Under the pieces are notes generated by a model. That model was not told the DNA's origin. It worked only from the letters and a program-made list of their open reading frames with translations, and made no database searches. A stretch of DNA of 61,427 nucleotides, taken from the NCBI GenBank assembly GCA_964354085.1, contig CAYGYA010000065.1, positions 1 to 61,427 on the forward strand. Reading direction: 5' to 3'. The translations under genes and the position numbers were made by a program. This stretch comes from an uncultured Methanosarcinales archaeon. Its GTDB lineage: Archaea; Nanobdellota; Nanobdellia; Woesearchaeales; SM23-78. Below are positions 370 to 29,624 of the stretch, one piece after another (position 1 is the first letter of the stretch; every line of letters starts with the position of its first letter).

Positions 370-465
370 TTTATTCTTTCTTAGAAACATTTTTATACTA
401 ATAATCCAAAAAATAGAGATATATACTATATTATCAAGAATTAATAAAAATATGAGGGTGGGAAA

Positions 466-3400
466 ATGGTTGATAAGAGAGTAGAGCATGATTTTATACT
501 AATGTCAGTTGTTGCTGTTGTTGCAGTAATAGCTATGTTTTCTTTGATTAGCCCTGCAAGCTTAGGAGACATAAGCATCACAGGTAATGTTATTGGCGAG
601 GCTAGTGCTATTCCGCCGCCTCTTTGTGAGGACACTGATGTGGGTCTGGATTATTCTACTAAAGGACGTTTAAGCGGGGATATACCTAGTGGATTCTATT
701 CAGAAGACCGTTGTTTCATGAAATATTTCCTGAGAGAAGTTTATTGTAAGGATAATCGTGCTGCTTCTCATACAACCTATTGTCGAACTGGCTGTGAAAA
801 TGGCATGTGCAAGGAAAAAAAGATTCAACAGAAATGCGGCGATGGTGTTCTCATTGGTTGGGAAAGGTGTGACGGCGCTAATTTGGGCGACAAGACATGC
901 AATAGCCTAGGATATATTGGCGGCGCTCTTAGCTGCACAAAATCTTGCATATTGAATACGAGTGGCTGCACAAAACCAGTATGCGGCAATAATATTAAAG
1001 AGGCTTATGAGGTATGTGATGGCAATGACTTAAATAACAAGACATGTAGAAACTTTGGCTTTATTGGAGGCACATTAAAATGCTCGAACTGCCAATATAA
1101 CATGACTAGTTGTGTCAAGACATGCTCTTCTGATTCAGAATGCGGTGTGCGTGTTTGTGCTGGAGTTAAGGTGCGTGAAACTTGCGAAAATGGTAGGTGT
1201 GTCTTTAAATCAAGTTGCACAGCTACTAAATGCGCAAAAGAAGGAGAATATGCTAGCGGAACAGTAGCACCCGAATATAGGGTTAGTTGTTGTGAAGGAT
1301 TAAAAGGATTTTATCCTTACCCTGATCGTGTAGGTGGAGGGCCTTTATGCTATAATCCTGAAAAAGGAACTCCCGTCTGCAAGAACCAGGGAACAAGGTC
1401 AGAAGGATGGTATTATCCTAAGACAGGCACATTGCTAAAGTATGAGACTTGTGGAGGAGGAGTTCGCTGTGGTAATAACATATGCGAAACAGGAGAAGCA
1501 GATAGTTGTCAAACACAATGCCCGCCTGATAGGGTTTGTGCTGCTGTTTGCATAATAGGAACCTGCCCCAAGGATTGTGCTAATACTGTTGTATGCACTG
1601 ATTCTGATGGGGGGAGGGATTTCAACCTGAAGGGCACAGTTAAAAAAATAGTTGATGGAAAACTGATGGAAGTAACAGATTATTGTATACTTGAACCATC
1701 TCCTGAATGGCCTGAGAAATATAACCTTGTTGAATACACTTGTGCAAACACGAATGAAAACATAAATTCAATATTTTATACTTGCCCTAGTGGCTGCAGG
1801 GACGGAGCCTGTGTGAATACTAGGTGTGCAAAAGAAGGAGAATATACGAGTGGCACAGTTGCGCCTGAGTACCAGTATGGCTGCTGTGAAGGATTAAGAA
1901 GATTTGATCAATATTCACAAGTTGATATAAGATATAGGCCTATCGGAGGCGGAGACTTGTGCTATGACCCTAATAAAGGGGATCCTATTTGCAGGAACTT
2001 AGGAACAAGTTCAGAAGGGTGGTATTATTCACGAACTGGAGGATTATTGAAATTGGGCAAATGCCCAACAGTGACTGTAGGCTGTGGAAATGGACTAATA
2101 GAACCTGGCGAAGAGTGTGATGGTTACAACTTGAATGGGATGACTTGTTCCGCGTTTAACTTTAGTGGAACAGTCGAATGCACAAACTGTAAACTAAATT
2201 TAAGCAAATGCACGCATGCTATGAGATGCAATACATACAATGATTGCCTACAGATTGCGCTTGCCCCCGATGGTTACAGAGAGTGCAATGGGAAAGATGC
2301 ATGCAAAGTAGGTGGAGGATACCTTTGTGAGAACAATACATGTGTTCTTCACAAGAGGATATATGATTGCCTAAATTGCACTGATGGATGCTTAGCTGTC
2401 GCTTACCCTATTGGCGCTGCTTGTGTGCCACCTGTTAATTATTGTGGCAATGGCATGATGAATCCTGGCGAGCAGTGTGACCCAGCTATGCCTTCTATAT
2501 CTATTCAGTGCAGCATGATTAGTGCTAACTTTACATCAGGCATTGTTACTTGCGACAAGAACTGTAAATATAATACTGCCAATTGCGTAGGCCCTGTTGG
2601 TGGCCGTTGCGGTGATGGTACTGTCACTGTTCGCAATATTGAGGGCTTTAATGAACAGTGTGATGGCAGTGTCAATAATAAGACTTGCAGAAACTTCGGG
2701 TTTATAATGGGTACTTTAACATGTTATGGTTGTCAATATAATACTTCCCGATGCTCTAATGAGCCTAGATGTGGCGAAGGAATCAAGAATCTTGCTGAGG
2801 AATGCGACGGCATGGATCTGGGAGGTGCTAGCTGTGCTTCATTAGATTTTTCTAGTGGATCAATAAGGTGCGCTTCTAATTGTACCATTGATAAGAGTCA
2901 TTGCTTGCCTTATAATTACTGTGGTAATAGGATTGTTGAGGCTGGTGAAGATTGCGACGGCGCTGCTAATGTAACCTGTCGGGCTTTAGACTTTGCTGGC
3001 GGGTCTATAAGGTGCAGCCTTAATTGTACTTTTGATACTAGTCATTGTTTGCCTTATGATTATTGTGGTAACTACTTAGTTGAGCCTGGCGAACAGTGTG
3101 ATGGCAGCACTAACACTGCTATTACTTGTGGTAAGTTTGGCTTTGAGAGCAGTCCTGGTTCTGTGATTTGTAGGAATTGTTATTATAATACCAGCCGCTG
3201 CACAGGTCATGCTGTTGGTGCTTGTGGTGATGGGGCTTTAGAACTTGGTGAGCAATGCGATGTTGGCATTAGCAGAATGATGTGCGCAGACTTTGGATTC
3301 ACAGGAGGAACAATTAGCTGTAATTTACAGACTTGTAAGTATGACACAAGCAAATGCGTAAATGGCATGCCTTGCAACACAAACATGGATTGCCCGCAGA

Positions 3401-5205
3401 TAGCAACTATTCCTGAATACATGGAATGTTACGGTAGTTCTCTTTGCAGAGTTGGTGAAGGCTATGATTGTGTGAACAGTAGATGCACCCTTAATAAGAA
3501 ATATTATGATTGCACACGTTGCCCTAATGGCTGCGGAAATGGCGCTTGCCTACCTATACCTGTTTCTGAATGCACAACAGCTACTGATTGCAAAGTAGAC
3601 CCTTGCGGAGAAAGCATGTGCATGCCTGTAAATGAGATAACTCTTCCGTGTGCTGTTTTACCTGCAGACAAAGTGGCTGATTACTGCACTTGCGAGAATA
3701 ATAAATGTGTTGGTCATAAGAAACCTTTACCTTATTGCGGTGATGGTTTTGTTAACCAGGCTGGTGAAGAATGTGATGGCATTGTTAGTCTGCCTTGCCC
3801 ATCTCATATTTCATTCTCAGGCTATCCTACTGGTACTTTGCGCTGCACTAATGACTGCAAATTTGATTACAGCAATTGTACAGATAATCCACCACCAACT
3901 CCTCGTTGCGGTGATGGCATTATTCAGAAGCCTAATGCTGTTGGCTTTAGTGAGGAGTGTGATGGAGACATTTTTATTGAACCTCTGAATATTTGTCCTC
4001 ATGGCTCTACTGGTGGCCCTGTATCTTGCAAAGATTGTAAATGGGATTACAGTTTATGCAAGCCTATTCCAGAACCTAGGTGTGGAGACGGCATTAGGCA
4101 GACTTTGCTGGGTGAGAATTGCGATGGCCCTGACTTTGGCGGCGAAACTTGCTTGTCTTTAGGTTATGCCGGAGGCAGTTTAAGTTGCACCTCTGGTTGC
4201 CTTATTGATACAACTGGCTGCACTTGGCCTCCGAGTATTTGTGGTGATGGTATTGTCAGCAAGCCTAATGATAATGGTGTTAATGAAGATTGTGATACTG
4301 TTGTAGTCGGCATGGGCTGTCCTTCAGAGTATTATGGCGGTTCTGTGCTTTGCACTAGAGGCTGCAAATATGATTACAGTAATTGCACTACTGTCCAACC
4401 TCCTCGTTGTGGTGATGGATATGTTAATACCCCTAACGAGCAATGCGATGGTGGTGACTTAAATGGGCAGAGTTGCGTGAGCCGAGGTTTCACTAGAGGC
4501 GATTTGGCGTGCGGTGGCAACTGCATGTTTGATGAGTCTTACTGTACTACCGATACTCCGCCTAGATGTGGCGATAACTTTGTTAATCAAGACTTTGAGT
4601 ATTGTGATGGCACTGATTTAAATGGAAATAGTTGTGAGAGCCGTGGTTTTGTTAGCGGAACCCTAAGATGCACAGGCAGTTGCGCATTTGACCCAAGAGA
4701 ATGTTCTATGTGCAACAACAACGGCGTATGCCAGCCAAGAACGGGTGAGACTGCTGATAATTGCATGGGAGATTGCTTTATTTCACCAATTGGAGTGGCG
4801 CTTTACCTTAACCCTGGCTCAATAGATGTTGCTACTGGAGACACTGTTAGCTTTGACATCGATGTATCAAACGTGAACAGCCTTTTTGGCTATCAGTTTG
4901 ACCTTAATTATGACCTTGAGTTGTTAGAGTTCATTGGATTGGAAGATGGAGACTTCCTTAGCACTACCCAGTCTCGTCCTTTCTGCGTTGAGTACACAGC
5001 ATCTCCTGGCTTGGTTGAGAATGTGGCGTGCACAAAACTAGGTGGAAGCGGAGTAAGCGGCAATGGCTTGTTAAAAAAGGTAAACTTTAGAGCTCTTGCC
5101 AGAGGGAATCCTAGTAATATAGTACTCTCAAATGTCAAGCTAGTTGATGCCACTGCAGCAACAATATCCGCACAGGTATTGTCCGGCCAGGTTAGTATTA
5201 GCTGA
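466..5205 (+). CDS. Giant (1579 aa) membrane-anchored, cysteine-repeat surface protein with a C-terminal cohesin domain
   Basis: SD-like GAGGGTGGG lies upstream of the ATG. One N-terminal TM helix (FILMSVVAVVAVIAMFSLI). About 15 copies by eye of CG[DN]G-x(4-9)-GE-x-CDG...C..GF.GG.L.C...C..[DN].S.C, which resembles the Myxococcus-type cysteine-rich repeat. Two copies each of two other Cys modules (CAKEGEY...CCEGL, and M[RP]CNT..DC.QIA). The cohesin-like tail contains VSFDIDVSNVNSLFGYQFDLNYDLELLEF. Confidence 0.9.
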   Translation: MVDKRVEHDFILMSVVAVVAVIAMFSLISPASLGDISITGNVIGEASAIPPPLCEDTDVGLDYSTKGRLSGDIPSGFYSEDRCFMKYFLREVYCKDNRAASHTTYCRTGCENGMCKEKKIQQKCGDGVLIGWERCDGANLGDKTCNSLGYIGGALSCTKSCILNTSGCTKPVCGNNIKEAYEVCDGNDLNNKTCRNFGFIGGTLKCSNCQYNMTSCVKTCSSDSECGVRVCAGVKVRETCENGRCVFKSSCTATKCAKEGEYASGTVAPEYRVSCCEGLKGFYPYPDRVGGGPLCYNPEKGTPVCKNQGTRSEGWYYPKTGTLLKYETCGGGVRCGNNICETGEADSCQTQCPPDRVCAAVCIIGTCPKDCANTVVCTDSDGGRDFNLKGTVKKIVDGKLMEVTDYCILEPSPEWPEKYNLVEYTCANTNENINSIFYTCPSGCRDGACVNTRCAKEGEYTSGTVAPEYQYGCCEGLRRFDQYSQVDIRYRPIGGGDLCYDPNKGDPICRNLGTSSEGWYYSRTGGLLKLGKCPTVTVGCGNGLIEPGEECDGYNLNGMTCSAFNFSGTVECTNCKLNLSKCTHAMRCNTYNDCLQIALAPDGYRECNGKDACKVGGGYLCENNTCVLHKRIYDCLNCTDGCLAVAYPIGAACVPPVNYCGNGMMNPGEQCDPAMPSISIQCSMISANFTSGIVTCDKNCKYNTANCVGPVGGRCGDGTVTVRNIEGFNEQCDGSVNNKTCRNFGFIMGTLTCYGCQYNTSRCSNEPRCGEGIKNLAEECDGMDLGGASCASLDFSSGSIRCASNCTIDKSHCLPYNYCGNRIVEAGEDCDGAANVTCRALDFAGGSIRCSLNCTFDTSHCLPYDYCGNYLVEPGEQCDGSTNTAITCGKFGFESSPGSVICRNCYYNTSRCTGHAVGACGDGALELGEQCDVGISRMMCADFGFTGGTISCNLQTCKYDTSKCVNGMPCNTNMDCPQIATIPEYMECYGSSLCRVGEGYDCVNSRCTLNKKYYDCTRCPNGCGNGACLPIPVSECTTATDCKVDPCGESMCMPVNEITLPCAVLPADKVADYCTCENNKCVGHKKPLPYCGDGFVNQAGEECDGIVSLPCPSHISFSGYPTGTLRCTNDCKFDYSNCTDNPPPTPRCGDGIIQKPNAVGFSEECDGDIFIEPLNICPHGSTGGPVSCKDCKWDYSLCKPIPEPRCGDGIRQTLLGENCDGPDFGGETCLSLGYAGGSLSCTSGCLIDTTGCTWPPSICGDGIVSKPNDNGVNEDCDTVVVGMGCPSEYYGGSVLCTRGCKYDYSNCTTVQPPRCGDGYVNTPNEQCDGGDLNGQSCVSRGFTRGDLACGGNCMFDESYCTTDTPPRCGDNFVNQDFEYCDGTDLNGNSCESRGFVSGTLRCTGSCAFDPRECSMCNNNGVCQPRTGETADNCMGDCFISPIGVALYLNPGSIDVATGDTVSFDIDVSNVNSLFGYQFDLNYDLELLEFIGLEDGDFLSTTQSRPFCVEYTASPGLVENVACTKLGGSGVSGNGLLKKVNFRALARGNPSNIVLSNVKLVDATAATISAQVLSGQVSIS
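4780..5202 (+). other. Cohesin-like domain (C-terminal 141 aa of the giant protein)
   Basis: Motif FGYQFDLNYD..LLEF...GDFL plus the beta-rich tail. Paralogous to the N-terminal domain of the ORF at 6473-8452 (YGFQFDLSYDSNVLEVVSVNEGTF). Confidence 0.7.
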
Positions 5206-5225
5206 TTTCCAGAGAGTGAAACACT

Positions 5226-6446
5226 ATGAAAAAGATTTTAATAAGTTGGAGTATCTTGTTGTTTTCACTTTCAGTGTTTGTGAATGCAGCAATTGTCGCT
5301 GACCATGCCTCTGTGGCTCAGTTCGATAATATTCCCCAGGTATGGATTCAGGCAGCAAAAGATAATTTAGCAATCGCTTATGGCCATACTTCTCACGGAA
5401 GCCAGCTGATTACTGGCATGAACATGCTTCTTACAGAGAAAGGCTCACTTTACTCATGGAATAATGGAGGAACTGGCGGTGCTCTTGACTTGAGAGATTA
5501 CGCTGGCGATTTTGGTGGCTTGCATATAGCTAACGATCTCGGATACCATTATGATTACTCTACGAATTATACTGCTTGGGCAGATGCTACGAGAGCCTAT
5601 CTTTCTCAGCATCCTGAGACGAACGTTATTATCTGGGCATGGTGCTGGCAGATGGAAACATCCGAGGAATACATAAACACTTACTTGACATTGATGCATC
5701 AGTTCGAGCACGATTTCCCTAATGTTAAGTTCGTCTATATGACTGGACATGTGACTGAGGGTCAAGCATTATGCACTGATCCGAGGTTATGGGCTTGTGT
5801 CAATAATTTGCGCGCCACTCAGATACGTAATTTTGTGAATGCCAATAACGGTATACTTTATGATTTCTCTAATATTGAGAGCTATGATCCTAGTGGTAAT
5901 TATTTTGGCGATAAGCTTGTGGATGCTGCATGCAATTATGACAGTAACGGAGACGGTACAACTGACAAGAACTGGGCTACGGATTGGTGCAGTACTCATT
6001 CCTGCGTTGCCTGTCCTGGTGGATGCGCTCACTCCCAATGCTTGAACTGCTATATGAAAGGCAAGGCTGTCTGGTGGCTATGGGCGAGGCTTGCTGGTTG
6101 GGACGGAAGTTCTGGAACACCAGCCTGCGCTGATAATGACCAGGATGGTTATGGAGTTGGCTGTGCCCTTGGTTCTGATTGCAATGATAATAATGCTGCT
6201 ATTCATCCTGGAGCTGCTGAAATCTGCGGAGATGGCATTGACCAGGACTGCAATGGCCAGGACTTATCCTGCCCTCAGACTGTTAGCGGCGATTTAAATG
6301 GTGATCTTAAAGTTGATATTGCTGATTTGGTTATTGTAGCTACTAATTTTGGCAAAGTGAATTTTGATTCCAGAGCTGATGTTAATAAGGATAATATGAT
6401 TGACATAACTGATTTGGTCTTTGTAGCAAGAAGATACACAGGATAA
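5226..6446 (+). CDS. Secreted protein: unknown enzyme-like N-terminal domain, Cys/Asp-rich putative metal-binding motif, C-terminal type I dockerin
   Basis: Signal peptide MKKILISWSILLFSLSVFVNA. Motif DQDGYG..C..DCNDNNAAIHPGAAEICGDGIDQDCNG. Last 54 aa carry the duplicated Ca-binding dockerin repeat GDLNGDLKVDIADLV...ADVNKDNMIDITDLV. Confidence 0.85.
   Translation: MKKILISWSILLFSLSVFVNAAIVADHASVAQFDNIPQVWIQAAKDNLAIAYGHTSHGSQLITGMNMLLTEKGSLYSWNNGGTGGALDLRDYAGDFGGLHIANDLGYHYDYSTNYTAWADATRAYLSQHPETNVIIWAWCWQMETSEEYINTYLTLMHQFEHDFPNVKFVYMTGHVTEGQALCTDPRLWACVNNLRATQIRNFVNANNGILYDFSNIESYDPSGNYFGDKLVDAACNYDSNGDGTTDKNWATDWCSTHSCVACPGGCAHSQCLNCYMKGKAVWWLWARLAGWDGSSGTPACADNDQDGYGVGCALGSDCNDNNAAIHPGAAEICGDGIDQDCNGQDLSCPQTVSGDLNGDLKVDIADLVIVATNFGKVNFDSRADVNKDNMIDITDLVFVARRYTG
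6282..6443 (+). other. Dockerin type I module
   Basis: Two EF-hand-like segments, D-L-N-G-D-L-K-V-D-I-A-D-L and D-V-N-K-D-N-M-I-D-I-T-D-L, about 20 aa apart. This is the canonical dockerin pattern. Confidence 0.75.
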
Positions 6447-6472
6447 GGTTTAAATGCTAGAGTTGAAACATC

Positions 6473-8452
6473 ATGAAAAAGATATTTTTTAAACAAAAGG
6501 CTTCTTACTTTATTATTACCATATTAATATTCTTAATTATTGTTTGCAGCGCATCTGCTTTAGTCCAGGTATCTCCTTCTTCCTCTAACCTAAGCCTTTG
6601 CCCCAACGATACTTTTTCAATTAATATAACTATAAGTGGCGTGGCAGATGTTTATGGTTTTCAGTTTGACTTGAGCTATGATTCAAATGTTCTTGAAGTA
6701 GTTAGTGTTAATGAAGGAACTTTTATCAATGTCAGCAGCCAGTACAGGACTTTCTGGATAGAGCCTGACCTTTCAACTTCAGGGCTAATAAAGAATGTTG
6801 TGTGCTCAAGATTAGGAAATGTGAGCTCAAGTTCTTCTAGCGGAGTGCTTGCAACCATAATCTTCAAGCTTAAAAACACTACAAGCTATCCTGCAACAAG
6901 CAATCTTGTGCTGAATAACCTAAAACTCTCAGACATAAACAGCGTTCTATTAGATAATACAAAACAAGATGGTCAGGTAATTATCCCATCATGTTCTTGC
7001 GCTGACGGAGATACTAGAAGCTGCACTGCTAGTAATGGTTGTTCAGGATTAAGAACTTGCACTGGAGGAGCCTTTGGTAATTGTGTGAGCGCTACTCCTT
7101 ATTTTTGTGATAGCAATTGCGACGGAACTAGTGAATGCTCTGTTAATAATTGCACTACTTGCCAATGCACAGGCTCTGTTTCTAGGAGTTGTAGAACAAG
7201 CGGTGGATGTGGTGGCAGAACATATTGTGTTAATGGCAGTTGGAGCGATTGCCAGATTACACACTATTACTGCGATTATAGTTGTGACGGGGTAAATGAA
7301 ACATGCAGTGATACCCCTTGCCCCTCTACTTGTGTTTGTATTGAAGATTGGGATTGTGATGCCTGGAGCACTTGCTCAGGAGGCAATCAGGAGAGGTCAT
7401 GTACTGACCTTAATGATTGCGGTACAGATGACAATATGCCTTCTGTTAGTAGGAGCTGCTCAACTGGTAGCAGTGGCGGAGGCGGTGGAGGAAGTGGCAG
7501 CAGTTTACCTCCTCCTTGTACTGAAGCCTGGAGTTGTGATGAGTGGTCTTCTTGCCAAACAGATGGTTTTAGCAGAAGAAGATGTAATGATGCTAATAAT
7601 TGTGGAACTTCGATGAGCAAGCCACAGGAATTAGAGATTTGCTTTTATGAAGGTGATTGTAATGATTGGATCATGAATCAGGATGAAACAGGCATTGATT
7701 GTGGAGGAAGCTGCCCAACGCTTTGCCCTGAGCCTGAACCAGAGCAGGTTCTTGCCGGCCCCCCGCAACTAAATATTATTATTGAACCTGTAAGCGCTGA
7801 AATTCTTGACCAGTATGTACTAAAAATAACTGTAGAGAACCAAGGGGAGGGTGAGGTTAATGATTTGAAGATTATTGCTAATAAATGGAGCGGAGAGCCA
7901 GGAGTTATTCAGAGTATTATGCCTGGCATGAGCGAGCAAAAAGGATTGGTGCTTAGCTTGCCAGCAAACCTTGATGAAACATCAGTGGATATCCAGGTGG
8001 TGCAAAATGGCGTTGTTATCGTAGTCCAAACTGTTCCTGTAACCTTATCTATTCCTCTGTTTAGCGTTAAGATTAACAAGGATATTGAGACTGGCAGGAC
8101 TTATGAAACAATTATTGTGGATAACAGAAATAATGCTCCAAGAAAATTAGAGATTGATGTTACAATAAACAAGGGCAAAGAGACCTATCTCATTGATACT
8201 GGCAAGACCTATGACATAGGAGAGAACCAGATATTTAACCAGGTTGATTACTTGTATCAGGACCTTCCAGCTGGGAAATACGAGATTAAATCTTTGTTCT
8301 ATGAGAACGGGCAAAAAATAGGTGAAGCAACTTCTTTTGTGGTTCTTGGCGGCAATAAAAGAGCATTTAACGTCAAATACTTATTTTACTTCATGCTTAT
8401 TGTCATAGTTGGAATTTCAGGCTATGTATTTTTTATGAGCCAGAAAAAATAA
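6473..8452 (+). CDS. Surface protein: signal peptide, N-terminal cohesin, Cys-rich modules, CARDB-like domain, C-terminal TM anchor
   Basis: Cohesin-like region at about 6563-6988 (FSINITISGVADVYGFQFDLSYD). Duplicated Cys modules include two W.C..WS.C..G...R.C.D.N.CGT units. One GIDCGGSC motif. CARDB-like segment LKITVENQGEGEVNDL. Terminal TM helix YLFYFMLIVIVGISGYVFFM. Confidence 0.85.
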   Translation: MKKIFFKQKASYFIITILIFLIIVCSASALVQVSPSSSNLSLCPNDTFSINITISGVADVYGFQFDLSYDSNVLEVVSVNEGTFINVSSQYRTFWIEPDLSTSGLIKNVVCSRLGNVSSSSSSGVLATIIFKLKNTTSYPATSNLVLNNLKLSDINSVLLDNTKQDGQVIIPSCSCADGDTRSCTASNGCSGLRTCTGGAFGNCVSATPYFCDSNCDGTSECSVNNCTTCQCTGSVSRSCRTSGGCGGRTYCVNGSWSDCQITHYYCDYSCDGVNETCSDTPCPSTCVCIEDWDCDAWSTCSGGNQERSCTDLNDCGTDDNMPSVSRSCSTGSSGGGGGGSGSSLPPPCTEAWSCDEWSSCQTDGFSRRRCNDANNCGTSMSKPQELEICFYEGDCNDWIMNQDETGIDCGGSCPTLCPEPEPEQVLAGPPQLNIIIEPVSAEILDQYVLKITVENQGEGEVNDLKIIANKWSGEPGVIQSIMPGMSEQKGLVLSLPANLDETSVDIQVVQNGVVIVVQTVPVTLSIPLFSVKINKDIETGRTYETIIVDNRNNAPRKLEIDVTINKGKETYLIDTGKTYDIGENQIFNQVDYLYQDLPAGKYEIKSLFYENGQKIGEATSFVVLGGNKRAFNVKYLFYFMLIVIVGISGYVFFMSQKK

Positions 8453-8496: not shown

Positions 8497-8832
8497 ATGG
8501 CATATGTGTTTGGCATTGAGGGAGTTCCTATCTTTGAAATGTTACTAGTGCTATGCGTGCTCCTGTTATTAGGATTGTTCTTTATCCTGCTTGAGCTCAG
8601 GAAACTTACTTCCCTGATTGGCAAGGAAAAAGCTGACTTGAAACGCTTTGAAGACGACCTTGCAGAGCTAGAGAAAGACACAGGCAAGAAGTCCACAGAT
8701 GAAATCGTCCAATATATTAAGGGAGCGGTGGCAAAAGGAATGCCAAGGGCTCAGATAGAGGTTTCCCTTATCCAACGCGGATGGTCTAAGAAGGAAATAG
8801 ATACCATACTTGATCAAGTAGGTGGAAAATAA
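8497..8832 (+). CDS. Small membrane protein (one TM plus charged coiled segment), function unknown
   Basis: ORF with hydrophobic N-terminus LLVLCVLLLLGLFFILL. A T-rich stretch follows the stop. Confidence 0.5.
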   Translation: MAYVFGIEGVPIFEMLLVLCVLLLLGLFFILLELRKLTSLIGKEKADLKRFEDDLAELEKDTGKKSTDEIVQYIKGAVAKGMPRAQIEVSLIQRGWSKKEIDTILDQVGGK

Positions 8833-8899
8833 TTTTTTTGTTTTTTTATTCTTTTATTTAATACAAACCTTTAAAAACTCCATTAATTAAGGCACAACC

Positions 8900-22106: not shown

Positions 22107-22826
22107 TCAAGGAGTCGGAATCGGGATTGGGGCCAAAGGCATTATATTCATCCTGACACAGGATGGTTCTGGAGGTGGAGAGATTATTTGATTAATATAG
22201 CAGCCGCTTGTTGAATTCTCAACCCAGCTGCTGTCGATTATTTCACTAAAATCTTGATGCCACAATCCGTACACTGACACATTTATGCTTACAATCTTAT
22301 TTATTCTTGACCAGTTAGTATCAAAAGCACTGAAGAAATAATTTGATCTGAAATTAAGCCTTATCGAATCATAAGTGAGCTGCTCTGCACTTTCAAGCCT
22401 GTAACTGAAGCTTGCATTATCTAATTTAAAGGAAAGGGTTGCTAGTGATTGCTGAAAATTCTCATTTGTAGCTAGCAAGGGATTGATGCGCAAGCCAGAA
22501 TCGCTGTCAAAACCATTTGTCATCAAATCAATTAGCTGGCTCCTATTAAAAGGAGAATCCCTGGTCAGGTTAATCAAGGCAGGCTTGGCTGCTGTCTGCA
22601 ATATATTCTCTGCATAGTATCTGTCAAAATCCCTTACAAAATGGTCCATGATAATTATTTTTACTCTTTCAACATGGAACTCCTCATCCTTTTTCAACAC
22701 CTGTGCCTTGCTGTTAAAAACAATCACCAAGAAAATCAGGAACAATACTGCTGAAATAGAATAAAATACTCCTTTCTTATTCAGTCTAGTCAGCCTACGT
22801 GTTTTTCCCATCATTCTTTCATCCAT
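22107..22826 (-). CDS. Pilus-operon protein with possible class III (prepilin-like) signal
   Basis: N-terminus ...RLNKKG/VFYSISAVLFLIFLVIVF. Overlaps the preceding giant gene by 16 nt and is the last gene of the operon. Confidence 0.5.
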   Translation of the reverse strand: MDERMMGKTRRLTRLNKKGVFYSISAVLFLIFLVIVFNSKAQVLKKDEEFHVERVKIIIMDHFVRDFDRYYAENILQTAAKPALINLTRDSPFNRSQLIDLMTNGFDSDSGLRINPLLATNENFQQSLATLSFKLDNASFSYRLESAEQLTYDSIRLNFRSNYFFSAFDTNWSRINKIVSINVSVYGLWHQDFSEIIDSSWVENSTSGCYINQIISPPPEPSCVRMNIMPLAPIPIPTP

Positions 22827-25800
22827 ACTTTTGCTATAAAAATATATGGACCTTTGCTAAATACAAAGCCATCTTTTTCATAATATCCAGTGACTGCTCT
22901 TGAGCCAGCAATGAGCAAGGTTGAGTTTGGCTCATAGCTAAGCTCTCCAATGTAGTAATGGAATCTTTTTAGTTTAGGGCATATTCTTACATAATCTTGA
23001 GAAGGGTTATGATACTCATCAAAGGTTATTTTGATTACTGAGCCATTTTCAGTGCCATGAGTAATATTAGTAAGATTGGTTATATAGAAAGTTGTTGCCT
23101 GGGTTCCTGAAGAAGGAGACCCTCCAAACCCGTCAAAAGTTGTAAAATCAGCTGCATATGTAAGATGATGTAAGGTAAAGCCCGAGAGCAAGTAGCTGGA
23201 TATATAGTCAGATACTCTTACTGGTGCATATGGGTCAGTAACCCAGATTTCATTGTCAAGACAACCTGATGAATTCAAACCTTCGAAATCCCCTGAATCT
23301 GCATAAGCTTCACAAATTGGATTGTCACATTTTGAATCGAGATTAAGGACAGTCACATTGCACGAGTCCGAATCAACACCTTCATCAGTAGTTACTCTAA
23401 TATTAACAGTTTCTAATGTTGCATCATTAGATGTTATGCTAATGCTACTTGGAAGATTATCATTTATTGTAATAGCAGAAATGTGAGGATGAGAAATGCT
23501 AATTATCCCCCCTGTGTCTCCGTTAAAAATATTGCTAAGGTTGATAATAAGGGGTTGTCCTGTGTGTAATAAGTAATTGGGAATTGATGACTCGCAGTGC
23601 AAGGGATTTGGTATACAATCTCCCATGGTGCATGTTGCTAAGTCGCAAGTTCTTGTTCCCTCATGCCCTGCTCCCGTATTACAATCTTCAGGCGGAGTGG
23701 TTGCATCGCAACTAGCTCCGCACTTGGCTACTGAGCAATTAAGAGCCTCTCCAAAAACATCATATGCGCATGTGCACAGATCACTGCAGTCTCCGTAAGA
23801 GTCTCTTGCTGCTATCTTTGGTCCAAAGCACTGTTCAATAGATTGGTTGCAATCAGTGTTATTGTTAGTGCTTGGAAGTTCGCATGATTCTGGCGGGTTA
23901 GTGATGATGTTATCTCCACAGCTTAGAGTTGTAGTGCATATGTTCCAGTTGCAATTGGTTTCATCACAAGTTTGAGTTCCAGGATAGCCATCTATTGTGT
24001 TGCACGGCTGGCTTGTTCCATTTGTGCAAATAGCTCCGCATATGCCCGCTATGCAGATTGGTTCACTCCAAGTATCATTAACACATCCGCAATTAGCATT
24101 ACAGTTTCCATATAAGTCTCTTGTCCTCGCTTTCGGAGCATCTGTGCAGTTCTCTGCGTCTTGGTTGCAATAGGCATTATTTACTGTGTTGTTTCTTTCG
24201 CATTGCTCTATTTGCTGGTTTATGGTTCCGTCCCCACACTTTCCTGTTGGTGTGCATGTGTTCCATTGGCATGTTGTGATGTTGCAAGCCTGTATTCCTG
24301 GGAATCCTCCGGGTACTGGGCATTGCCGGGTTTGTCCATCGCTGCATTCTGCTCCGCATTTGTTTGCTGTGCAAATGGCTGTGCTCCATGAGTCATTGTA
24401 GCACTCGCATATGCCATTGCAGTACCCTATCTGGTCTGGTCTTGTTGCTAGTCTTGGCCCGTCACAGCTTTCATTATCTTGATAGCAGTTTGAGTTTTTT
24501 TGATTATCATTTGGCTCGCATTGTTCTGTTTGTTGGTTTATGGTTCCATCTCCACAGCTTCCCAGGGCAGTGCATGTGTTCCATTGGCATGTTGTGGCGT
24601 TGCAGTCTTGTATTCCTGGGAATCCTCCTGGTACTGGGCAGTTCTGAGTTTCTCCGTAACTACATTCTGCTCCGCATTTGTTTGCTGTGCAAATGGCTGT
24701 GCTCCATGAGTCATTGTAGCATTCGCATATGTTATCGCAGTTTCCTACTCGATCTGGTCTTGTTGCTAGTCTTGATTCGTCACAGCTCTCATTGTCTTGT
24801 TGGCAGTATTGGTTGTTTTCGTTATTATTTGGTTCGCATTGTTCTCCTGCCTGATTTATTGTGCCATCTCCACATACACCTAGTGGTCTGCAAATATTCC
24901 ATTGGCATGTTGTGATGTTGCAAGCCCGTATTCCAGGAAATCCTCCTGACATCGGGCAGTTCTGAGTTTGTCCATCGCTGCAAATAGCCCCGCACTTGCT
25001 TGCTACACAAAGTGCAGCACTCCACGAGTCATTGTAGCATTGACATTCATTATTGCAATTACCAAAAATGTCTGGCCTTGTTGTTAATTGTGGTCCCACG
25101 CAGCTCTCATTTTGTTGTGAGCAATAAGGGTTATTATCATTATTGCTGGGCTCACACTGCTCTCCGGCTTCTCGCACGTTATTTCCGCAATATAGAGCGC
25201 ACCCTGCATAACTCACATTGATGCATGACATAGTTGATGCTCCCCAGGGGTCTGATATGTTAAAGAAAAAAGTTCTCCAGAATGGGTTCTGCAAATAAGC
25301 TGAATCAACTAGGAAGGCTAATTGCCTGGCAGTGTTAAAGTTATTATTGTAAGTGAAGTGAGAACCCCCTGATGATTCCATTAAGTAATTATTATACCGC
25401 CAAGTTAAAGTATTCAAAGGATCATTTGCATCAGTTACTAGGCCCGTATTCTCATCATCAATGCCTACGTAAGCGACGTCTTGATCACAGAGCATTGGCA
25501 CAAAAAGGCAATTCCCAATTGGGGGATAATTGCCAACAGGAGGCACGTTTATCTCGATGAATAATTCGGAAAGATTAAGCATTCCAACTGTGAGTGAATA
25601 GACTGAAAACCTGATGTCGCAGGGACTGAGAGTGCACTGGGCTAGATTATCCTGCACAAGGCTTCTGAAATCATTGCAATTGGCACCACTGCCACAAGAG
25701 GCACCATTCCAAAGGACATTACCATTATATAAGTCAGGATAGCTCCAGCCAAAGATATTTGAAGGGCTGGTAGAGCGTATTGTGGGCGTTGTGAGATTGG

Positions 25801-26692
25801 TTGTTTCTATTATTTCGGAAATGTTATTGTAAATGTCAATTAAAGCCTGGCCAGTTGAGGCATTAAAGTACAATCCTCCTTTGGTTTGATTTGAAACATT
25901 CTGCATGAATGAGCAATGAGCAGTAGTTCCCCCCCCGCCTGTAGTGTATGTTGTGCCACAACCTCCAAATGAGATTGCGAAAATAGTGATGTTGCTGCTA
26001 TTAGCAGTTCTAGCAAGGCTTAATATCCATGCTTCTGCTGCTCTATTAGTGTCAGAGTTATCTGCGCATGAACCACTTGAAAGGCAATTTGGCCATCCAT
26101 CAGTCATCAACAAAATATATTTCTTAGTGCCCACTCTCTGTGCTCTTACGCTGTTCAATTCATTTATTGCAAGCTGTAGAGCTGCTCCTAGGTTTGTATA
26201 CGAACCAACACGGTAATTGTTTATTGAATTGTCAAGTGTCACCTTGTTTGTTATCAGGGGTTGGTTTAGAGTAGCAACTGTTGAATAATTGACAAGTCCT
26301 ACCTGAATATAATTGGTGTCAACATTGCTGATAAAACTTCTATCAGCTGCCTGTGCACTAACTAACTTTACTACTCCTTGAACCGCTTGACCCATGCTTC
26401 CAGATAAATCTGTAACAATAATGACGTCCCTTGGCAGACCTTTGAGTCCTTGCATATTAAAGCCCTGTATTCTCATCCTTGCCTCAGCTACTGTTCCGTT
26501 GGGAACCCTTACAAAGAAAGTCTTAGTCATGAATTCTTGTGTGAAAGTCAGGTTTAGGGAGCTTAAGCTGGTGTTGAAAAGAGTTATCTGAGCGCTAGTT
26601 AGTTCATAGCTTAATGCAAATAAAGCCATGATTGCAATAGCAATGAATAATGCTTTGCTTGCCTTATTTGTTGAATTGGTTATTTTGCTCAT
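22811..26692 (-). CDS. Giant (1293 aa) secreted vWA-domain protein with five 106-aa cysteine-rich repeats; putative pilus-associated adhesin
   Basis: N-terminal hydrophobic signal. vWA with MIDAS residues (IIVTDLSGSMG, SYTNLG, LLMTDGWPN) at about 25958-26431. Five repeats begin at CG[DN]G/N...EQCEP. Confidence 0.85.
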   Translation of the reverse strand: MSKITNSTNKASKALFIAIAIMALFALSYELTSAQITLFNTSLSSLNLTFTQEFMTKTFFVRVPNGTVAEARMRIQGFNMQGLKGLPRDVIIVTDLSGSMGQAVQGVVKLVSAQAADRSFISNVDTNYIQVGLVNYSTVATLNQPLITNKVTLDNSINNYRVGSYTNLGAALQLAINELNSVRAQRVGTKKYILLMTDGWPNCLSSGSCADNSDTNRAAEAWILSLARTANSSNITIFAISFGGCGTTYTTGGGGTTAHCSFMQNVSNQTKGGLYFNASTGQALIDIYNNISEIIETTNLTTPTIRSTSPSNIFGWSYPDLYNGNVLWNGASCGSGANCNDFRSLVQDNLAQCTLSPCDIRFSVYSLTVGMLNLSELFIEINVPPVGNYPPIGNCLFVPMLCDQDVAYVGIDDENTGLVTDANDPLNTLTWRYNNYLMESSGGSHFTYNNNFNTARQLAFLVDSAYLQNPFWRTFFFNISDPWGASTMSCINVSYAGCALYCGNNVREAGEQCEPSNNDNNPYCSQQNESCVGPQLTTRPDIFGNCNNECQCYNDSWSAALCVASKCGAICSDGQTQNCPMSGGFPGIRACNITTCQWNICRPLGVCGDGTINQAGEQCEPNNNENNQYCQQDNESCDESRLATRPDRVGNCDNICECYNDSWSTAICTANKCGAECSYGETQNCPVPGGFPGIQDCNATTCQWNTCTALGSCGDGTINQQTEQCEPNDNQKNSNCYQDNESCDGPRLATRPDQIGYCNGICECYNDSWSTAICTANKCGAECSDGQTRQCPVPGGFPGIQACNITTCQWNTCTPTGKCGDGTINQQIEQCERNNTVNNAYCNQDAENCTDAPKARTRDLYGNCNANCGCVNDTWSEPICIAGICGAICTNGTSQPCNTIDGYPGTQTCDETNCNWNICTTTLSCGDNIITNPPESCELPSTNNNTDCNQSIEQCFGPKIAARDSYGDCSDLCTCAYDVFGEALNCSVAKCGASCDATTPPEDCNTGAGHEGTRTCDLATCTMGDCIPNPLHCESSIPNYLLHTGQPLIINLSNIFNGDTGGIISISHPHISAITINDNLPSSISITSNDATLETVNIRVTTDEGVDSDSCNVTVLNLDSKCDNPICEAYADSGDFEGLNSSGCLDNEIWVTDPYAPVRVSDYISSYLLSGFTLHHLTYAADFTTFDGFGGSPSSGTQATTFYITNLTNITHGTENGSVIKITFDEYHNPSQDYVRICPKLKRFHYYIGELSYEPNSTLLIAGSRAVTGYYEKDGFVFSKGPYIFIAKVWMKE
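23612..25189 (-). repeat. Five tandem coding repeats, period 318 nt (106 aa)
   Basis: Repeat starts are at residues C502, C607, C713, C819 and C925. A 59-nt run is identical at a 318-nt offset (from 24345 and from 24663). Confidence 0.85.
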
Positions 26693-26709: not shown

Positions 26710-27210
26710 CTATTGTGGATTATGATAAGTCTCTGTATTGTATAATTCCAGGAGCGGCGCTGCGCCGCCTTGGTAGAGCAGGGCAAAGCCGAATCTTTTC
26801 TCATCTATCACATTCTTTTTAGCAAATACTTCCTTGATAGCATCTCTTACAACCTCACCAGGGCAGTTGCCTGTGGTGATTACTTCGCTCATCATTGAAA
26901 GCAGGTTTCCATTATCATCTTTTAGCTGTCCCATGCATGGCGAGTTGCTGCATACTATCTGTGTAAGATTCTTGTAGTTTGGGCAGTCACAGCCAGGCTC
27001 ACTAATATTAGTGCACAGGTCATTCATTTGGGTGTAGGATAATACCCCGATGATATCCTCGGATAATTGCTCTGTGAAGTAAATAGTCTTATTTCCCGAA
27101 ATAAAATTATAGAATATGATGCCAATGCCCACTATTAGGATAATTATCGCAATTGTCAGGTCCAAGGTAAACATATAAGCTTTTTTATTCATTCTAATCA
27201 TTTTCTTCAT
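26710..27210 (-). CDS. Pilin-like protein (class III signal peptide)
   Basis: N-terminus MNKKA/YMFTLDLTIAIIILIVGIGIIF. Confidence 0.55.
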   Translation of the reverse strand: MKKMIRMNKKAYMFTLDLTIAIIILIVGIGIIFYNFISGNKTIYFTEQLSEDIIGVLSYTQMNDLCTNISEPGCDCPNYKNLTQIVCSNSPCMGQLKDDNGNLLSMMSEVITTGNCPGEVVRDAIKEVFAKKNVIDEKRFGFALLYQGGAAPLLELYNTETYHNPQ

Positions 27211-27222
27211 TTTTCATTCTCT

Positions 27223-27828
27223 TTATCTCTTACACATCACTATGTTCATTTGCAGTATTCTATTCCTACTATAATCTTTCTCATCAAATAACACTGGCTT
27301 GAAAAGGGATATTGCCTGCTTGTAAGCGTCGCACGGGTCATTGCCTGAAATAATCATTTCCTGATTGCAAGATCTGCCTGTTTTCCTTAGCTGGCCAAGC
27401 ACTTTTACTTCTGGCGGGCCTGGAAGGATAGTTAGTATTGCATTATTATTGTCTGTAAAGTACAGGCATACATCATGGCTTGCTTCATCCAAGCCAATGC
27501 CGTGGCTCTCACCAACTATTCCAATAACATAGGAATTAATGCTGCCTGAGCCAATGGCTGAAGCAAAGTTTTCTAGCCTTGTCTTGTCAACTCTATAACC
27601 TGCAAAGAAATCTCTCTCAGCAGCGCCAAACTTCAAATTATTCTCAAGATTGGCAAACACGTACTCAAGCTCAAAATCTGGCTTTTTCTCGCTGTTTTGG
27701 CTTAGAAGAAAAAGGCCCATAAATATTACTATGAAAATTACAAAGATAATAAGGCTGCTGCTAAAGTCAAAAGTTATTATTTGGGCTTTTTTCGCGTTCC
27801 TGAGACTAAATAATGGTTTGTTTTTCAT
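27223..27828 (-). CDS. Pilin-like protein (class III signal peptide)
   Basis: N-terminus RNAKKA/QIITFDFSSSLIIFVIFIVIF. Confidence 0.6.
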   Translation of the reverse strand: MKNKPLFSLRNAKKAQIITFDFSSSLIIFVIFIVIFMGLFLLSQNSEKKPDFELEYVFANLENNLKFGAAERDFFAGYRVDKTRLENFASAIGSGSINSYVIGIVGESHGIGLDEASHDVCLYFTDNNNAILTILPGPPEVKVLGQLRKTGRSCNQEMIISGNDPCDAYKQAISLFKPVLFDEKDYSRNRILQMNIVMCKR

Positions 27829-27840
27829 TCTATTTTCATC

Positions 27841-28281
27841 CTAAATCTCTCTCACAACTTCAATTGATAAATTGTTAGTGGCTGCGTTCTTTCTGATTAT
27901 TAGTTCCTTAATAGGCCTGCCTGGATTAAGGTCATTTACTGAGCTTATTATTGGCAGGAAAACCCTGGCCAGCTCCTCACGATCATAACCATCTTTGATA
28001 ATCAGCATATTATCTGGATAAGCACGAAGCTCAATCTGAATCCTGGCACTGTTAATCCTGTTAGGAATGATTATTTCTGTTACAAAATCTGATTCTGAAA
28101 GAGAGGCTGTTATGGCTTTCACCTTAATGTCCTTAGCCAGGTTTTCAGCAAGCCCTTTTGTAGATGATGCCTTGTCAACGCTGCCGGGAAAAAATCCAGC
28201 CAAGAATATGAATATGAAGAAGACAATGGTGAACAATACAATAAATTCAAAAGATATCTGTGCTTTTTTCATTCTAATCAA
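27841..28281 (-). CDS. Archaeal type IV pilin-like protein (Q+1, DUF361-type signal)
   Basis: N-terminus MIRMKKA/QISFEFIVLFTIVFFIFIFL. Confidence 0.7.
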   Translation of the reverse strand: MIRMKKAQISFEFIVLFTIVFFIFIFLAGFFPGSVDKASSTKGLAENLAKDIKVKAITASLSESDFVTEIIIPNRINSARIQIELRAYPDNMLIIKDGYDREELARVFLPIISSVNDLNPGRPIKELIIRKNAATNNLSIEVVREI

Positions 28282-28852
28282 TAAGTGGGATGATATTAAC
28301 CTTTACCTCGTTACTGCCAGTATTATCATATTTGGTCTCTAGCTTGAATTTCTTTTTTCCAGGATGAATCACACTATCCTTAAAATTATAGAAATTACAT
28401 GATGAAGAAGCACACTCAGCTATATACACTGAGCTGTCTGAGTTGTCAACATACATGGAATTAGGGTCAGATGCAAGAGGAACTGACATTAAAGGGACAT
28501 CTGATGGAATAAAATACTTGCTTTCTTCTTTTCCATTGTTTATTATAATTCCAATATAATAATACTTCCTGCCGGTGCCAGTCTGGTTGAATTCTAGTAT
28601 AAAAAACCTTTTTACATTATCAGGAACATCATAGGTTACTATTTTCTTTGAATAAAGTCCAAGATAATACATTTGTTTTGCATTTTCTACCAGGCCATTG
28701 CCCAGGTCATTTGCTTTCTGAGTGCTGACTGTGCCGTACACGCTCTTATTGGCAAAAGAGAAAAGAAAGATGGCAGAAGGAACAATTATTATCAGCAGGA
28801 TAAACCCAGTCAAAATCAGGTATTCCATGGATATTTGAGCCTGTTTTGACAT
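28274..28852 (-). CDS. Archaeal type IV pilin-like protein
   Basis: N-terminus MSKQA/QISMEYLILTGFILLIIIV. 8-nt overlap with the next gene. Confidence 0.7.
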   Translation of the reverse strand: MSKQAQISMEYLILTGFILLIIIVPSAIFLFSFANKSVYGTVSTQKANDLGNGLVENAKQMYYLGLYSKKIVTYDVPDNVKRFFILEFNQTGTGRKYYYIGIIINNGKEESKYFIPSDVPLMSVPLASDPNSMYVDNSDSSVYIAECASSSCNFYNFKDSVIHPGKKKFKLETKYDNTGSNEVKVNIIPLID

Positions 28853-28928
28853 GTATACCTACCTCTTTTTTTGCTTTACCACACCCTCACAAAAATTAAA
28901 AAAATACAATAAATATTTTTTATCAAGC

Positions 28929-29447
28929 TTATGAAGCTTTTATCCTAATAGAACCTGTTGATTCCTGAGTGATTGCGCCTTCAGTGAATTTGTACTGTGT
29001 TGTCAAAGTGCCCCTAAGCAGCTTGCCTGCCATTGCATCAGTAGTATCAATAGTCACCTTTGCAATTTCTCCGGGTGGCAATGAAACACAGTCAGCGCAC
29101 GTACCAATTTGTTCGTCATTGTATGTGGCGTCTGCATCAGCTGATGTTTTTGTACCGCTAAACTGCACTGATGATTTGTCTGTAACAGATATTTTTAATG
29201 TATCAACTGGTTTCTGTCCTATGTTCCTTATGCCAAGCTCAATTGTGTGGGTTGAGGCAACAAAACTCCATTCCTCGCACTTAAGGTCGCTACCAGTGCC
29301 TCCGAGGTCACACTTGTCAGGAAGATAGCTTCCCAAGTCCAGGATGTTGAAATACAGCAGTCCTCCAATCACAGAAAGCGTAACCAATATTACCAGACCG
29401 TAGATGATCATGGTTTCAATTGATAGCTGGGCTCTTTTGTTCTTCAT
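28929..29447 (-). CDS. Archaeal type IV pilin-like protein (candidate major pilin; has its own upstream AT-rich region)
   Basis: N-terminus MKNKRA/QLSIETMIIYGLVILVTLSVIGG. Preceded by a 177-nt intergenic region with TATA-like elements. Confidence 0.7.
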   Translation of the reverse strand: MKNKRAQLSIETMIIYGLVILVTLSVIGGLLYFNILDLGSYLPDKCDLGGTGSDLKCEEWSFVASTHTIELGIRNIGQKPVDTLKISVTDKSSVQFSGTKTSADADATYNDEQIGTCADCVSLPPGEIAKVTIDTTDAMAGKLLRGTLTTQYKFTEGAITQESTGSIRIKAS

Positions 29448-29543
29448 TTTTCACGCACCTCTCTAACTTTTTTAGTTCATTCTATTTATATTAACTATCT
29501 TACTATTTAAATTATTGATACTAACTATATTTAAAAGTTTCGC

Positions 29544-29621: not shown

Positions 29622-29624
29622 GAA

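Follow-up and report, generated by a model that had tools for sequence, protein, structure and literature searches.

Cohesin–dockerin pairs are a standard example of modular extracellular assembly, and to our knowledge their roles beyond cellulolytic bacteria are mostly unknown. We analysed a 61,427-nucleotide archaeal contig (GenBank assembly GCA_964354085.1, contig CAYGYA010000065.1, positions 1–61,427 of the forward strand; hereafter the window) in which four adjacent genes form a compact cohesin–dockerin cassette: two encode predicted membrane anchors that each carry one cohesin (proteins A and C), one encodes a secreted protein with a C-terminal dockerin (protein B) and one encodes a small membrane protein (D). 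We consider it probable that the cassette is a membrane-anchored, cellulosome-like display system for glycan-active enzymes, encoded as one A-B-C-D transcription unit. The host is a Woesearchaeote, a DPANN archaeon, a possibility that the initial annotation had raised: RNase J, encoded next to the cassette, is 75–87% identical to proteins of metagenome-assembled genomes (MAGs) labelled Candidatus Woesearchaeota or Nanoarchaeia, all named full-length relatives of protein C are Ca. Woesearchaeota, and Woesearchaeota are placed in the Nanobdellati, the DPANN group.

466..5205, + strand: gene A, 1,579 amino acids (aa), A-type cohesin anchor or scaffold with a cysteine-rich stalk (open reading frame, ORF)
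5226..6446, + strand: gene B, 406 aa, secreted dockerin-tagged cargo (ORF)
6473..8452, + strand: gene C, 659 aa, C-type cohesin anchor, type I membrane protein (ORF)
8497..8832, + strand: gene D, 111 aa, single-pass membrane protein (directly after the C-type gene)

Genes A, B and C lie exactly where three consecutive same-strand genes had been annotated and are tightly packed, with gaps of 20 nucleotides (nt) between A and B and 26 nt between B and C. Gene D starts 44 nt after gene C; downstream of it come a T-rich tract and the RNase J gene, in that order.

Comparison with described cohesin–dockerin systems

Non-cellulosomal modules of this kind are known from other archaea. Cohesin–dockerin pairs of Archaeoglobus fulgidus bind each other experimentally (Bayer 1999 and Peer 2009, as cited in PMC9012536), and anaerobic methanotrophic (ANME) archaea, uncultured and living in close cell–cell partnerships, encode abundant non-cellulosomal cohesin and dockerin proteins (PMC9012536). 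Close relatives among the ANME archaea differ in the domain content of these proteins, for which a part in interactions between species has been proposed; the dockerins mostly tag ABC-transporter substrate-binding proteins, and scaffoldin-like members combine a dockerin with as many as five cohesins (PMC9012536). In ultra-small Omnitrophota, non-cellulosomal dockerins occur on giant proteins that are suggested adhesins (PMC10066038). No description of a cohesin–dockerin system in Woesearchaeota, Nanoarchaeota or DPANN archaea was found in full-text literature searches.

The window cassette resembles the A. fulgidus modules in being archaeal and unrelated to cellulose degradation, and the modelled cohesin of C matches the A. 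fulgidus structure 2xdh with a template-modelling score (TM-score) of 0.77; the lineages differ (Archaeoglobi versus Woesearchaeota), and the single operon with its oppositely anchored cohesin pair, Cys-rich stalk and exchangeable cargo may also set the window cassette apart. With the ANME proteins it has in common that the modules are non-cellulosomal and archaeal and that domain content varies between close relatives, whereas its cargo is enzyme-like (SGNH-like or beta-helix) and its anchors carry one cohesin, a transmembrane helix and no dockerin. Toxin and glycosidase complexes of Clostridium perfringens are a further parallel, since there too non-cellulosomal pairs assemble glycan-degrading enzymes, directed against the glycans of another organism. 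The dockerin of B matches 2jnk_A (E 8.1e-5), one of the structures (PDB 2ozn, 2jnk and 2jh2) of the C. perfringens NagH dockerin with the NagJ cohesin, and the cohesin of A matches the NagJ cohesin weakly (E 0.056). In that system both modules reside on soluble secreted enzymes, whereas here the cohesins sit on membrane anchors, and sequence similarity is weak.

Bacterial cellulosomes and minimal cellulosome-like systems (Clostridium/Acetivibrio thermocellum CipA–OlpB; C. acetobutylicum) share with the cassette a type I-like cohesin fold, a C-terminal duplicated Ca-binding dockerin on secreted enzyme-like proteins, cohesin-bearing surface anchors, clustered genes and, in sister cassettes, pectate-lyase-fold cargo. 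The model of the C cohesin matches type I cohesins, best of all 6kgd_A (E 7.5e-9, TM-score 0.76), from C. acetobutylicum CohA2/Doc0917. Several features set it apart from a strict cellulosome: the host is a DPANN archaeon; A and C carry one cohesin each (at most two, in the A orthologue of related locus L001) instead of forming a multi-cohesin scaffoldin; no carbohydrate-binding module (CBM) or S-layer homology (SLH) domain was matched on them at E ≤ 1, and transmembrane segments, one N-terminal (A) and one C-terminal (C), serve as anchors in place of SLH domains or sortase; the spacer of A is a 1,400-residue array of six-Cys repeats rather than Thr/Pro linkers or X modules; and the cargo includes uncharacterised families (the B family and a third family), with no recognised glycoside hydrolase. 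With cohesins and a dockerin present and several cellulosome features missing, the cassette would work like a minimal cellulosome without being one.

What is new here is the lineage for such systems, the opposite orientation of the two transmembrane anchors, the six-Cys repeat stalk, and exchangeable, uncharacterised cargo in a small island. The CGDG...E.CD signature of the stalk is that of the myxobacterial-type repeats TIGR02232/DUF4215, and the literature searched held no instance of TIGR02232-type repeats that separate a cohesin from its membrane anchor. The locus offers a compact, syntenic DPANN case suited to comparison. Because sockets, plugs and exchangeable cargo are encoded side by side, partner assignment and specificity are directly testable with a few recombinant modules. 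Three uncharacterised secreted families emerge from it as probable glycan-active enzymes, and its small Cys-rich modules, membrane-anchored cohesins and matched dockerins could serve as surface-display parts.

Two cohesins on predicted membrane anchors of opposite orientation

Both cohesins and the dockerin score above their Pfam cut-offs in the profile search that the initial annotation had proposed as a check. The cohesins reach 51.8 bits in A (residues 1451–1577, E 1.2e-13) and 55.6 bits in C (residues 44–170, E 8.5e-15) against a PF00963 cut-off of 24.1, and the dockerin of B (residues 355–403) reaches 23.3 bits against a Dockerin_1 (PF00404) cut-off of 22.9.

4816..5196, + strand: A-type cohesin (Pfam PF00963; 4795–5199 by our own profile)
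6563..6985, + strand: C-type cohesin (Pfam, Foldseek, phmmer)
6282..6443, + strand: duplicated dockerin of B with two Ca-binding F-hand loops (Pfam, matches to dockerins in PDB, alignment, our own profile)

The C cohesin also matches 1g1k by phmmer (E 2.8e-4). The AlphaFold model of C has a mean predicted local distance difference test (pLDDT) value of 67.5, with 70–88 in the cohesin part, which superposes on the nine-stranded beta-sandwich (jelly-roll) fold of solved cohesins; its top 50 Foldseek matches are overwhelmingly cohesins (TM-scores 0.65–0.77). The two cohesins are 32% identical (tblastn E 4e-16), in line with the earlier proposal that they are paralogues, and across the related cassettes described below A-type and C-type cohesins form two clades that are about 30% identical to each other and 38–79% identical internally.

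499..552, + strand: residues 12–29 of A, the sole hydrophobic segment (Kyte–Doolittle scan)
835..4713, + strand: residues 124–1416 of A, 15 six-Cys repeats (CGDG...E.CDG...C...C...C) with other duplicated Cys modules interspersed (regular expression and listing)
6995..7642, + strand: residues 175–390 of C, small Cys-rich beta modules, then a Pro/Glu-rich disordered linker (AlphaFold; internal repeat by tblastn)
7769..8347, + strand: residues 433–625 of C, two tandem beta-sandwich (Ig/FnIII-like) domains (AlphaFold secondary structure)
8372..8446, + strand: residues 634–658 of C, C-terminal transmembrane helix followed by a basic tail, QKK (AlphaFold model and hydrophobicity scan)

Protein A has the architecture that was claimed for it, with a hydrophobic N-terminal segment, 15 Cys repeats and a C-terminal cohesin. 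Basic residues precede the hydrophobic segment, which is probably an uncleaved signal-anchor (N-in), a cleavable signal peptide being the less likely alternative. Each of the 15 repeat units spans about 50 aa and holds six Cys (pattern C-G-[DNE]-x...E-x-C-D), so that Cys makes up 162 of 1,579 residues (10.3%), compared with 1.4% in the 35 other ORFs of the window; Cys totals are even in all three proteins (A 162, B 16, C 40). The repeats match TIGR02232 (myxo_disulf_rpt, cysteine-rich acidic repeat) in six stretches at 26.4 bits (cut-off 20.8), while the second family named for them, Pfam DUF4215, stays below its cut-off (17.5 versus 27 bits). No DNA-level tandem repeats were found across A–C, and the Cys repeats are therefore old and diverged.

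Protein C has a signal peptide, an N-terminal cohesin, Cys modules and a C-terminal transmembrane helix, as annotated; the CARDB label was not borne out, since PF07705 gave no Pfam match in the window protein at E ≤ 1 and the orthologue at related locus L014 stays under the cut-off (E 0.0064, 17.1 versus 22.7 bits). Full-length relatives of C are rare (about six among 5.8e9 proteins). The hydrophobicity scan and the AlphaFold model agree with the initial annotation that the cohesin lies at the end farthest from the anchor in both proteins and, with A anchored at its N-terminus and C at its C-terminus, both cohesins are predicted to be extracellular and distal to the membrane.

A variable island with exchangeable cargo

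To place the cassette in context we gathered loci from contigs with close B or C homologues, from a genome scan for RNase J and from a metagenome scan with a C profile (about a dozen independent copies, from several populations), and ran our own cohesin and dockerin profiles and tblastn across all of them. Records that carry the cassette include GCA_041490125.1, GCA_016935175.1 and a 358-kb contig of ERZ27247948. The order is constant: a tRNA-Leu-like sequence, an A-type cohesin gene, one to three dockerin genes, a C-type cohesin gene and the 111-aa gene, with a radical-SAM gene between the last of these and RNase J in some genomes.

L006, L096, L101: A-B-C-D as in the window
L001, L002, L099: A with two cohesins, B, a 508–516-aa protein, a 605–616-aa beta-helix protein, C, D
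L004, start: 123-aa gene for an N-terminal fragment, then a 190-aa lipoprotein-like A-type cohesin
L004, remainder: 659-aa beta-helix/Big_7 protein, B, 620-aa beta-helix protein, C
L093 (one MAG with L016), first part: 212-aa membrane-anchored A-type cohesin (L093_212), C-type cohesin fused to an enzyme-like domain, contig gap
L016, second part of the same MAG: 503-aa protein, 547-aa beta-helix protein, C, D
L100: 786-aa beta-helix/NosD/DUF5123 protein, C, D
L014: C and D only

Three cargo classes recur, each ending in a C-terminal dockerin: the B family, the beta-helix proteins and a third family of about 505 aa, whose 503-aa and 508-aa members are 34% identical to each other. The beta-helix proteins match Pect-lyase_RHGA_epim (2.8e-12), Beta_helix (7.3e-13 and 2.7e-11), DUF1565 (4.6e-6), NosD and DUF5123. 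The sockets vary as well. Orthologues of A at the same position are 1,236 aa long in L006 and 1,138 aa in L001, the N-terminus of A is retained in the minimal anchor L093_212 and in the cohesin-less 123-aa protein of L004, and the spacer of the A-type anchor ranges from about 50 residues (L093_212) to about 1,400 (window), so that its reach is evolutionarily tunable.

The cassette is absent from the site in L010, L015 and L017, whose RNase J proteins are 73–79% identical, and neither the cohesin nor the dockerin profile found a match outside the cassette in the 1.2 Mb of DNA around RNase J that was scanned in 80 related archaeal species. Since close relatives lack it and the modules do not recur elsewhere in this DNA, the cassette is lineage-restricted, and the unit is a variable island between the tRNA-Leu-like sequence and RNase J. 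The initial annotation had described a fixed three-gene set; one to three cargo genes, a conserved fourth gene and spacers of very different length replace that picture, while its proposal of a co-occurrence survey was fruitful in that the cassette genes occur together in every related cassette recovered. Only fragments of at most 100 aa came back when the 5.8e9 proteins were searched with a dockerin profile, a result that is uninformative on the cargo repertoire.

Two loci needed closer reading. At L093 (GCA_016935175.1, 10001–11887, + strand) a C-type cohesin, Cys and MopE modules and a third-family enzyme-like domain are encoded in one polypeptide; the contig ends inside this fusion gene and the cassette of the MAG is spread across two contigs, which suggests that the region is hard to assemble. 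The C gene of L001 (14720–16822), broken into four small genes in the database, was considered as a pseudogene and that was ruled out: its DNA is 99.95% identical to L002, it has one intact 722-codon frame, and the split is a gene-calling artefact.

Dockerin similarity within genomes

Cohesin and dockerin modules are strictly adjacent in every cassette copy that holds both, and their clustering at this locus is more than chance. The sequences of the dockerins offer a further indication of partnership. In L004, the three dockerins, that of B and those of two unrelated beta-helix proteins, are 76–80% identical to each other and 40–54% identical to those of other genomes, and the N-terminal domain of B remains about 80% identical between L004 and the window despite the divergent dockerins; two dockerins of L001 are 89% identical to each other. 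Judged by these identities, dockerins group by genome, not by cargo. Such co-evolution within a genome is what selection for a common, self-encoded receptor predicts, and recent module duplication or gene conversion inside the cassette would yield the same pattern. The fusion of a C-type cohesin to a third-family domain at L093 likewise links the parts functionally. L004, with the most divergent dockerins, also has the most divergent A-type cohesin, and its C-type cohesin is not unusually divergent; this may bear on which cohesin takes the dockerin but, drawn from three or four genomes, is only a lead.

Protein B and its enzyme-like domain

B carries a signal peptide and no other topogenic feature. 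Its orthologues share 64–83% identity and the same gene neighbours, and in the database the gene call for B begins 11 residues downstream of our start.

5289..6110, + strand: residues 22–295 of B, conserved alpha/beta domain (homologue search, AlphaFold, Foldseek)
6177..6260, + strand: residues 318–345 of B, MopE-type Cys-rich motif (PF11617), a linker module (Pfam, E 1.7e-12)

The description of B as a signal-peptide protein with a canonical duplicated dockerin is upheld, with PF00404 passed marginally. By phmmer the dockerin matches the solved dockerins 2y3n_B (E 4.8e-5), 2jnk_A (given above) and 5lxv_B. Loop 1 (DLNGDLKVDIAD) is followed by LVIVATNF and loop 2 (DVNKDNMIDITD) by LVFVARRY; both 12-residue loops have D or N at positions 1, 3, 5, 9 and 12, the canonical Ca ligands, and the AlphaFold model places helices after them (residues 365–374 and 394–405), giving B the two tandem loop–helix segments of about 22 residues that mark type I dockerins. 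The MopE-type motif, which is absent from the initial annotation, matches PDB 2vov_A (E 6.3e-6).

The N-terminal domain belongs to a very large, uncharacterised family, with more than 4,636 homologues (clusters) at E ≤ 1e-3, and is 55–58% identical even in Acidobacteriota, Planctomycetes and Thermoplasmata; most members either consist of this domain alone (about 294 aa) or have it fused to PKD domains. No relative was found in Pfam, NCBIfam, PHROGs or PDB, the last searched both with the single sequence and with a profile, and a Pfam scan of 38 family members gave no family above threshold and no SGNH match. The MHB haemophore family appeared below threshold in 22 of the 38 and was rejected: because the members are homologous, these matches are not independent, and we judged them non-significant. 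The domain is a candidate new domain of unknown function or enzyme family.

Its AlphaFold model (pLDDT about 90) has five strands alternating with helices. Nearly all best-ranked Foldseek matches in PDB have the SGNH fold, led by PatB (7tjb, E 1.6e-3; none below 1e-3) and including CE3, Axe2, sialate esterases and a peptidoglycan O-acetylesterase (target TM-scores 0.43–0.50); in the viral library BFVD, most of the named matches are phage hydrolases of the SGNH/GDSL type and tail proteins (E ≥ 9e-3). Invariant in the family are YG-x-x-SHG-x-Q after strand 1 and D104, N133, E161, D163, D213, E218, D239, D247, N249 and H269, which do not map by sequence onto the canonical SGNH blocks; in the model, S56 may occupy the expected place of the nucleophile. 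With moderate to low confidence, we regard B as enzyme-like, with an SGNH-like fold and probably acting on glycans. Because of these SGNH-like matches and the beta-helix cargo of sister cassettes, the earlier statement that the system has no carbohydrate-active enzyme is doubtful and probably wrong in spirit, although in the window itself no established CAZy family was found. One bacterial B homologue adjoins PKD-rich surface proteins and another lies near CBM9/DUF5916 and Wzz/Poly_export capsule genes, contexts that are uninformative.

Proposed mechanism and alternative explanations

We propose that A, B, C and D are expressed as a single transcription unit. A would be held by its N-terminal signal-anchor, with its cohesin at the tip, about 1,400 residues of Cys-rich and presumably disulfide-bonded repeats away from the membrane; C, a type I membrane protein, would present its cohesin at the tip of a shorter spacer built from Cys modules and a pair of Ig-like domains. 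Two cohesins would thus be exposed outside the cell at two different distances from the membrane. B would be secreted by way of its signal peptide and then captured through its Ca-binding dockerin by one or both cohesins. Its alpha/beta domain, which is probably an esterase or some other enzyme that modifies glycans, would in this way be kept at a set distance from the cell. The cassettes of sister genomes may use the two sockets for one to three cargo proteins, including pectate-lyase-fold beta-helix proteins, and the enzymes might act on environmental polysaccharide or on the envelope or extracellular polymeric substances of a partner cell. Should the cargo act on a partner's envelope, the cassette would offer one of the rare concrete molecular entry points to the interaction between Woesearchaeota and their hosts. 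That the disulfide stalk is rigid and the whole a host-contact device, as the initial annotation put it, is conjecture.

Several observations weigh against a display system for glycan-active enzymes. The SGNH fold matches of B are weak (best E 1.6e-3, target TM-score about 0.5), and the canonical SGNH blocks (GDS nucleophile, Gly, GxND, DxxH) are not recognisable in its family. Pfam finds no CBM or other glycan-binding module on A or C. The hydrophobic segment of A could be cleaved, which would make A a free protein. The dockerin of B stands a mere 0.4 bits over its Pfam cut-off, and module counts do not balance, with two cohesins to one dockerin in the window and a C-type cohesin without a nearby dockerin gene in L014; from this mismatch, partners encoded elsewhere are likely, the window being 61 kb of the genome.

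The last two points would also fit neighbouring modules that are not partners at all, the cohesins binding dockerins encoded elsewhere or having a non-dockerin role, the EF-hand pair of B being a mere Ca-binding stabiliser and the clustering reflecting co-regulation of secreted proteins. Ratios of two cohesins to three dockerins in L004 and of one to none in L014 are compatible with this, and orphan non-cellulosomal cohesins and dockerins are common in archaea (PMC9012536). The strict adjacency of the modules in every cassette, the lack of either one elsewhere in 1.2 Mb of related DNA, the near-identical dockerins on unrelated cargo of one genome and the canonical residues of both Ca-binding loops make such independence very unlikely.

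An adhesion device, in which stalk and cohesins attach an episymbiont to its host and enzymatic activity is secondary, would suit a DPANN archaeon, an island that comes and goes among close relatives with variable content, as host-range determinants often do, and an A-type spacer of such variable length; in ultra-small Omnitrophota, an adhesin role has been proposed for giant proteins bearing non-cellulosomal dockerins (PMC10066038). In variants of this reading the partners of the cohesins might be dockerin-like modules of the host surface, or the adhesive tip might be B. We find adhesion improbable as the main role, since dockerins that co-evolve with the cassette of their own genome point to a self-encoded partner, Pfam recognises no adhesin, lectin or CBM domain on A, B or C, and the cargo is enzyme-like (beta-helix, SGNH-like) rather than adhesin-like. 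A and C could instead be coat proteins that tether enzymes for de-O-acetylating or trimming the glycans or capsule on the cell's own surface: among the SGNH-fold matches are O-acetylesterases and the peptidoglycan O-acetyltransferase PatB, enzymes that work on the wall of the producing cell, the window also encodes a UDP-glucose dehydrogenase and a Polysacc_synt flippase, and one bacterial B homologue lies near Wzz/Poly_export capsule genes. Such self-maintenance appears quite improbable, because relatives with 73–79% identical RNase J lack the whole cassette, which makes it dispensable for envelope building, the polysaccharide genes of the window lie more than 30 kb away, and beta-helix lyase-like cargo is more typical of the depolymerisation of foreign polymers.

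Phages swap tailspike depolymerases, and the swapping of cassette cargo may be likened to this. The display system we favour could, in a bolder form, be a host-range or host-attack organelle, in which exchangeable dockerin-tagged depolymerases (the esterase-like B and the tailspike-like beta-helix proteins), mounted on sockets at two distances, on a long disulfide stalk and on a short anchor, would strip or open the glycan envelope of a specific host, and island gain and loss together with cargo swapping beside the tRNA-Leu-like sequence would set host specificity. We hold this to be an unlikely but not far-fetched possibility.

Gene D and the genomic setting of the cassette

Gene D encodes a protein with one transmembrane helix and a helical tail predicted to be cytoplasmic. 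Among the loci examined, it is found solely beside C-type genes and is better conserved than they are (85–86% identical where C is 65–72% identical), and it is probably a fourth member of the cassette; it could be a membrane partner of C. The D family is broader (116 clusters at 50% identity). The C-terminal approximately 45 residues of D (...IKGAVAKGMPRAQIEVSLIQRGWSKKEIDTIL) recur at the extreme C-termini of giant proteins of 833–5,173 aa in the representative library, often in several copies, and constitute an unnamed small helical module.

376..465, + strand: upstream region of gene A, AT-rich, with TATA-like TTTTTATA and Shine–Dalgarno-like GAGGGTGGG before the ATG (read from the sequence)
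8833..8860, + strand: T-rich tract TTTTTTTGTTTTTTTATTCTTTTATTT (read from the sequence)

The upstream region is a putative promoter and ribosome-binding site of gene A, and the T-rich tract a putative archaeal terminator of the A-B-C-D unit. A sigma-70 promoter scan (23 promoter-like sites versus a shuffled expectation of 19.6) and an intrinsic terminator scan (4 versus 6.5) stayed near the shuffled expectation and used models that are not applicable to archaea.

Between the start of the contig and gene A lies a probable tRNA-Leu(CAA)-derived sequence (80–213, + strand). Its counterpart at this syntenic position in L010, which lacks the cassette, is a bona fide tRNA-Leu(CAA) to which it can be aligned. 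In the window copy the 5' acceptor region is aberrant and the variable arm is enlarged by a 45-nt insertion; ARAGORN (introns on and off) and Rfam both miss this copy. Three hairpin units with 53-nt spacing follow it (214–372), each ending in CCCGCA, the tRNA 3' end; the fold z-score of positions 78–375 is −6.97, and the relatives L001, L006 and L004 have extra partial copies of the tRNA 5' end upstream. Possible explanations are intron or processing signals and scars that repeated insertion has left at a tRNA-linked island. None of the cassettes was seen to contain an integrase, and the tRNA 3'-end-like motif GTTTGCCCGCA has no second occurrence downstream of the cassette.

The genes flanking the cassette are archaeal housekeeping genes (RNase J, PCNA, ribonucleotide reductase and 5S rRNA, the last at 41701–41817). 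Farther along, a 1,292-aa protein with an N-terminal von Willebrand factor A domain (22811–26692, − strand) is adjoined by several small genes and a T2SSE/type IV pilus-type ATPase gene (26710–34534, − strand; ATPase at 32636–34534), and this region may be a second surface-appendage or adhesion locus of the window. A long run of mostly minus-strand genes at 42438–61000, starting with the UDP-glucose dehydrogenase and the Polysacc_synt flippase, looks like a surface-polysaccharide biosynthesis cluster.

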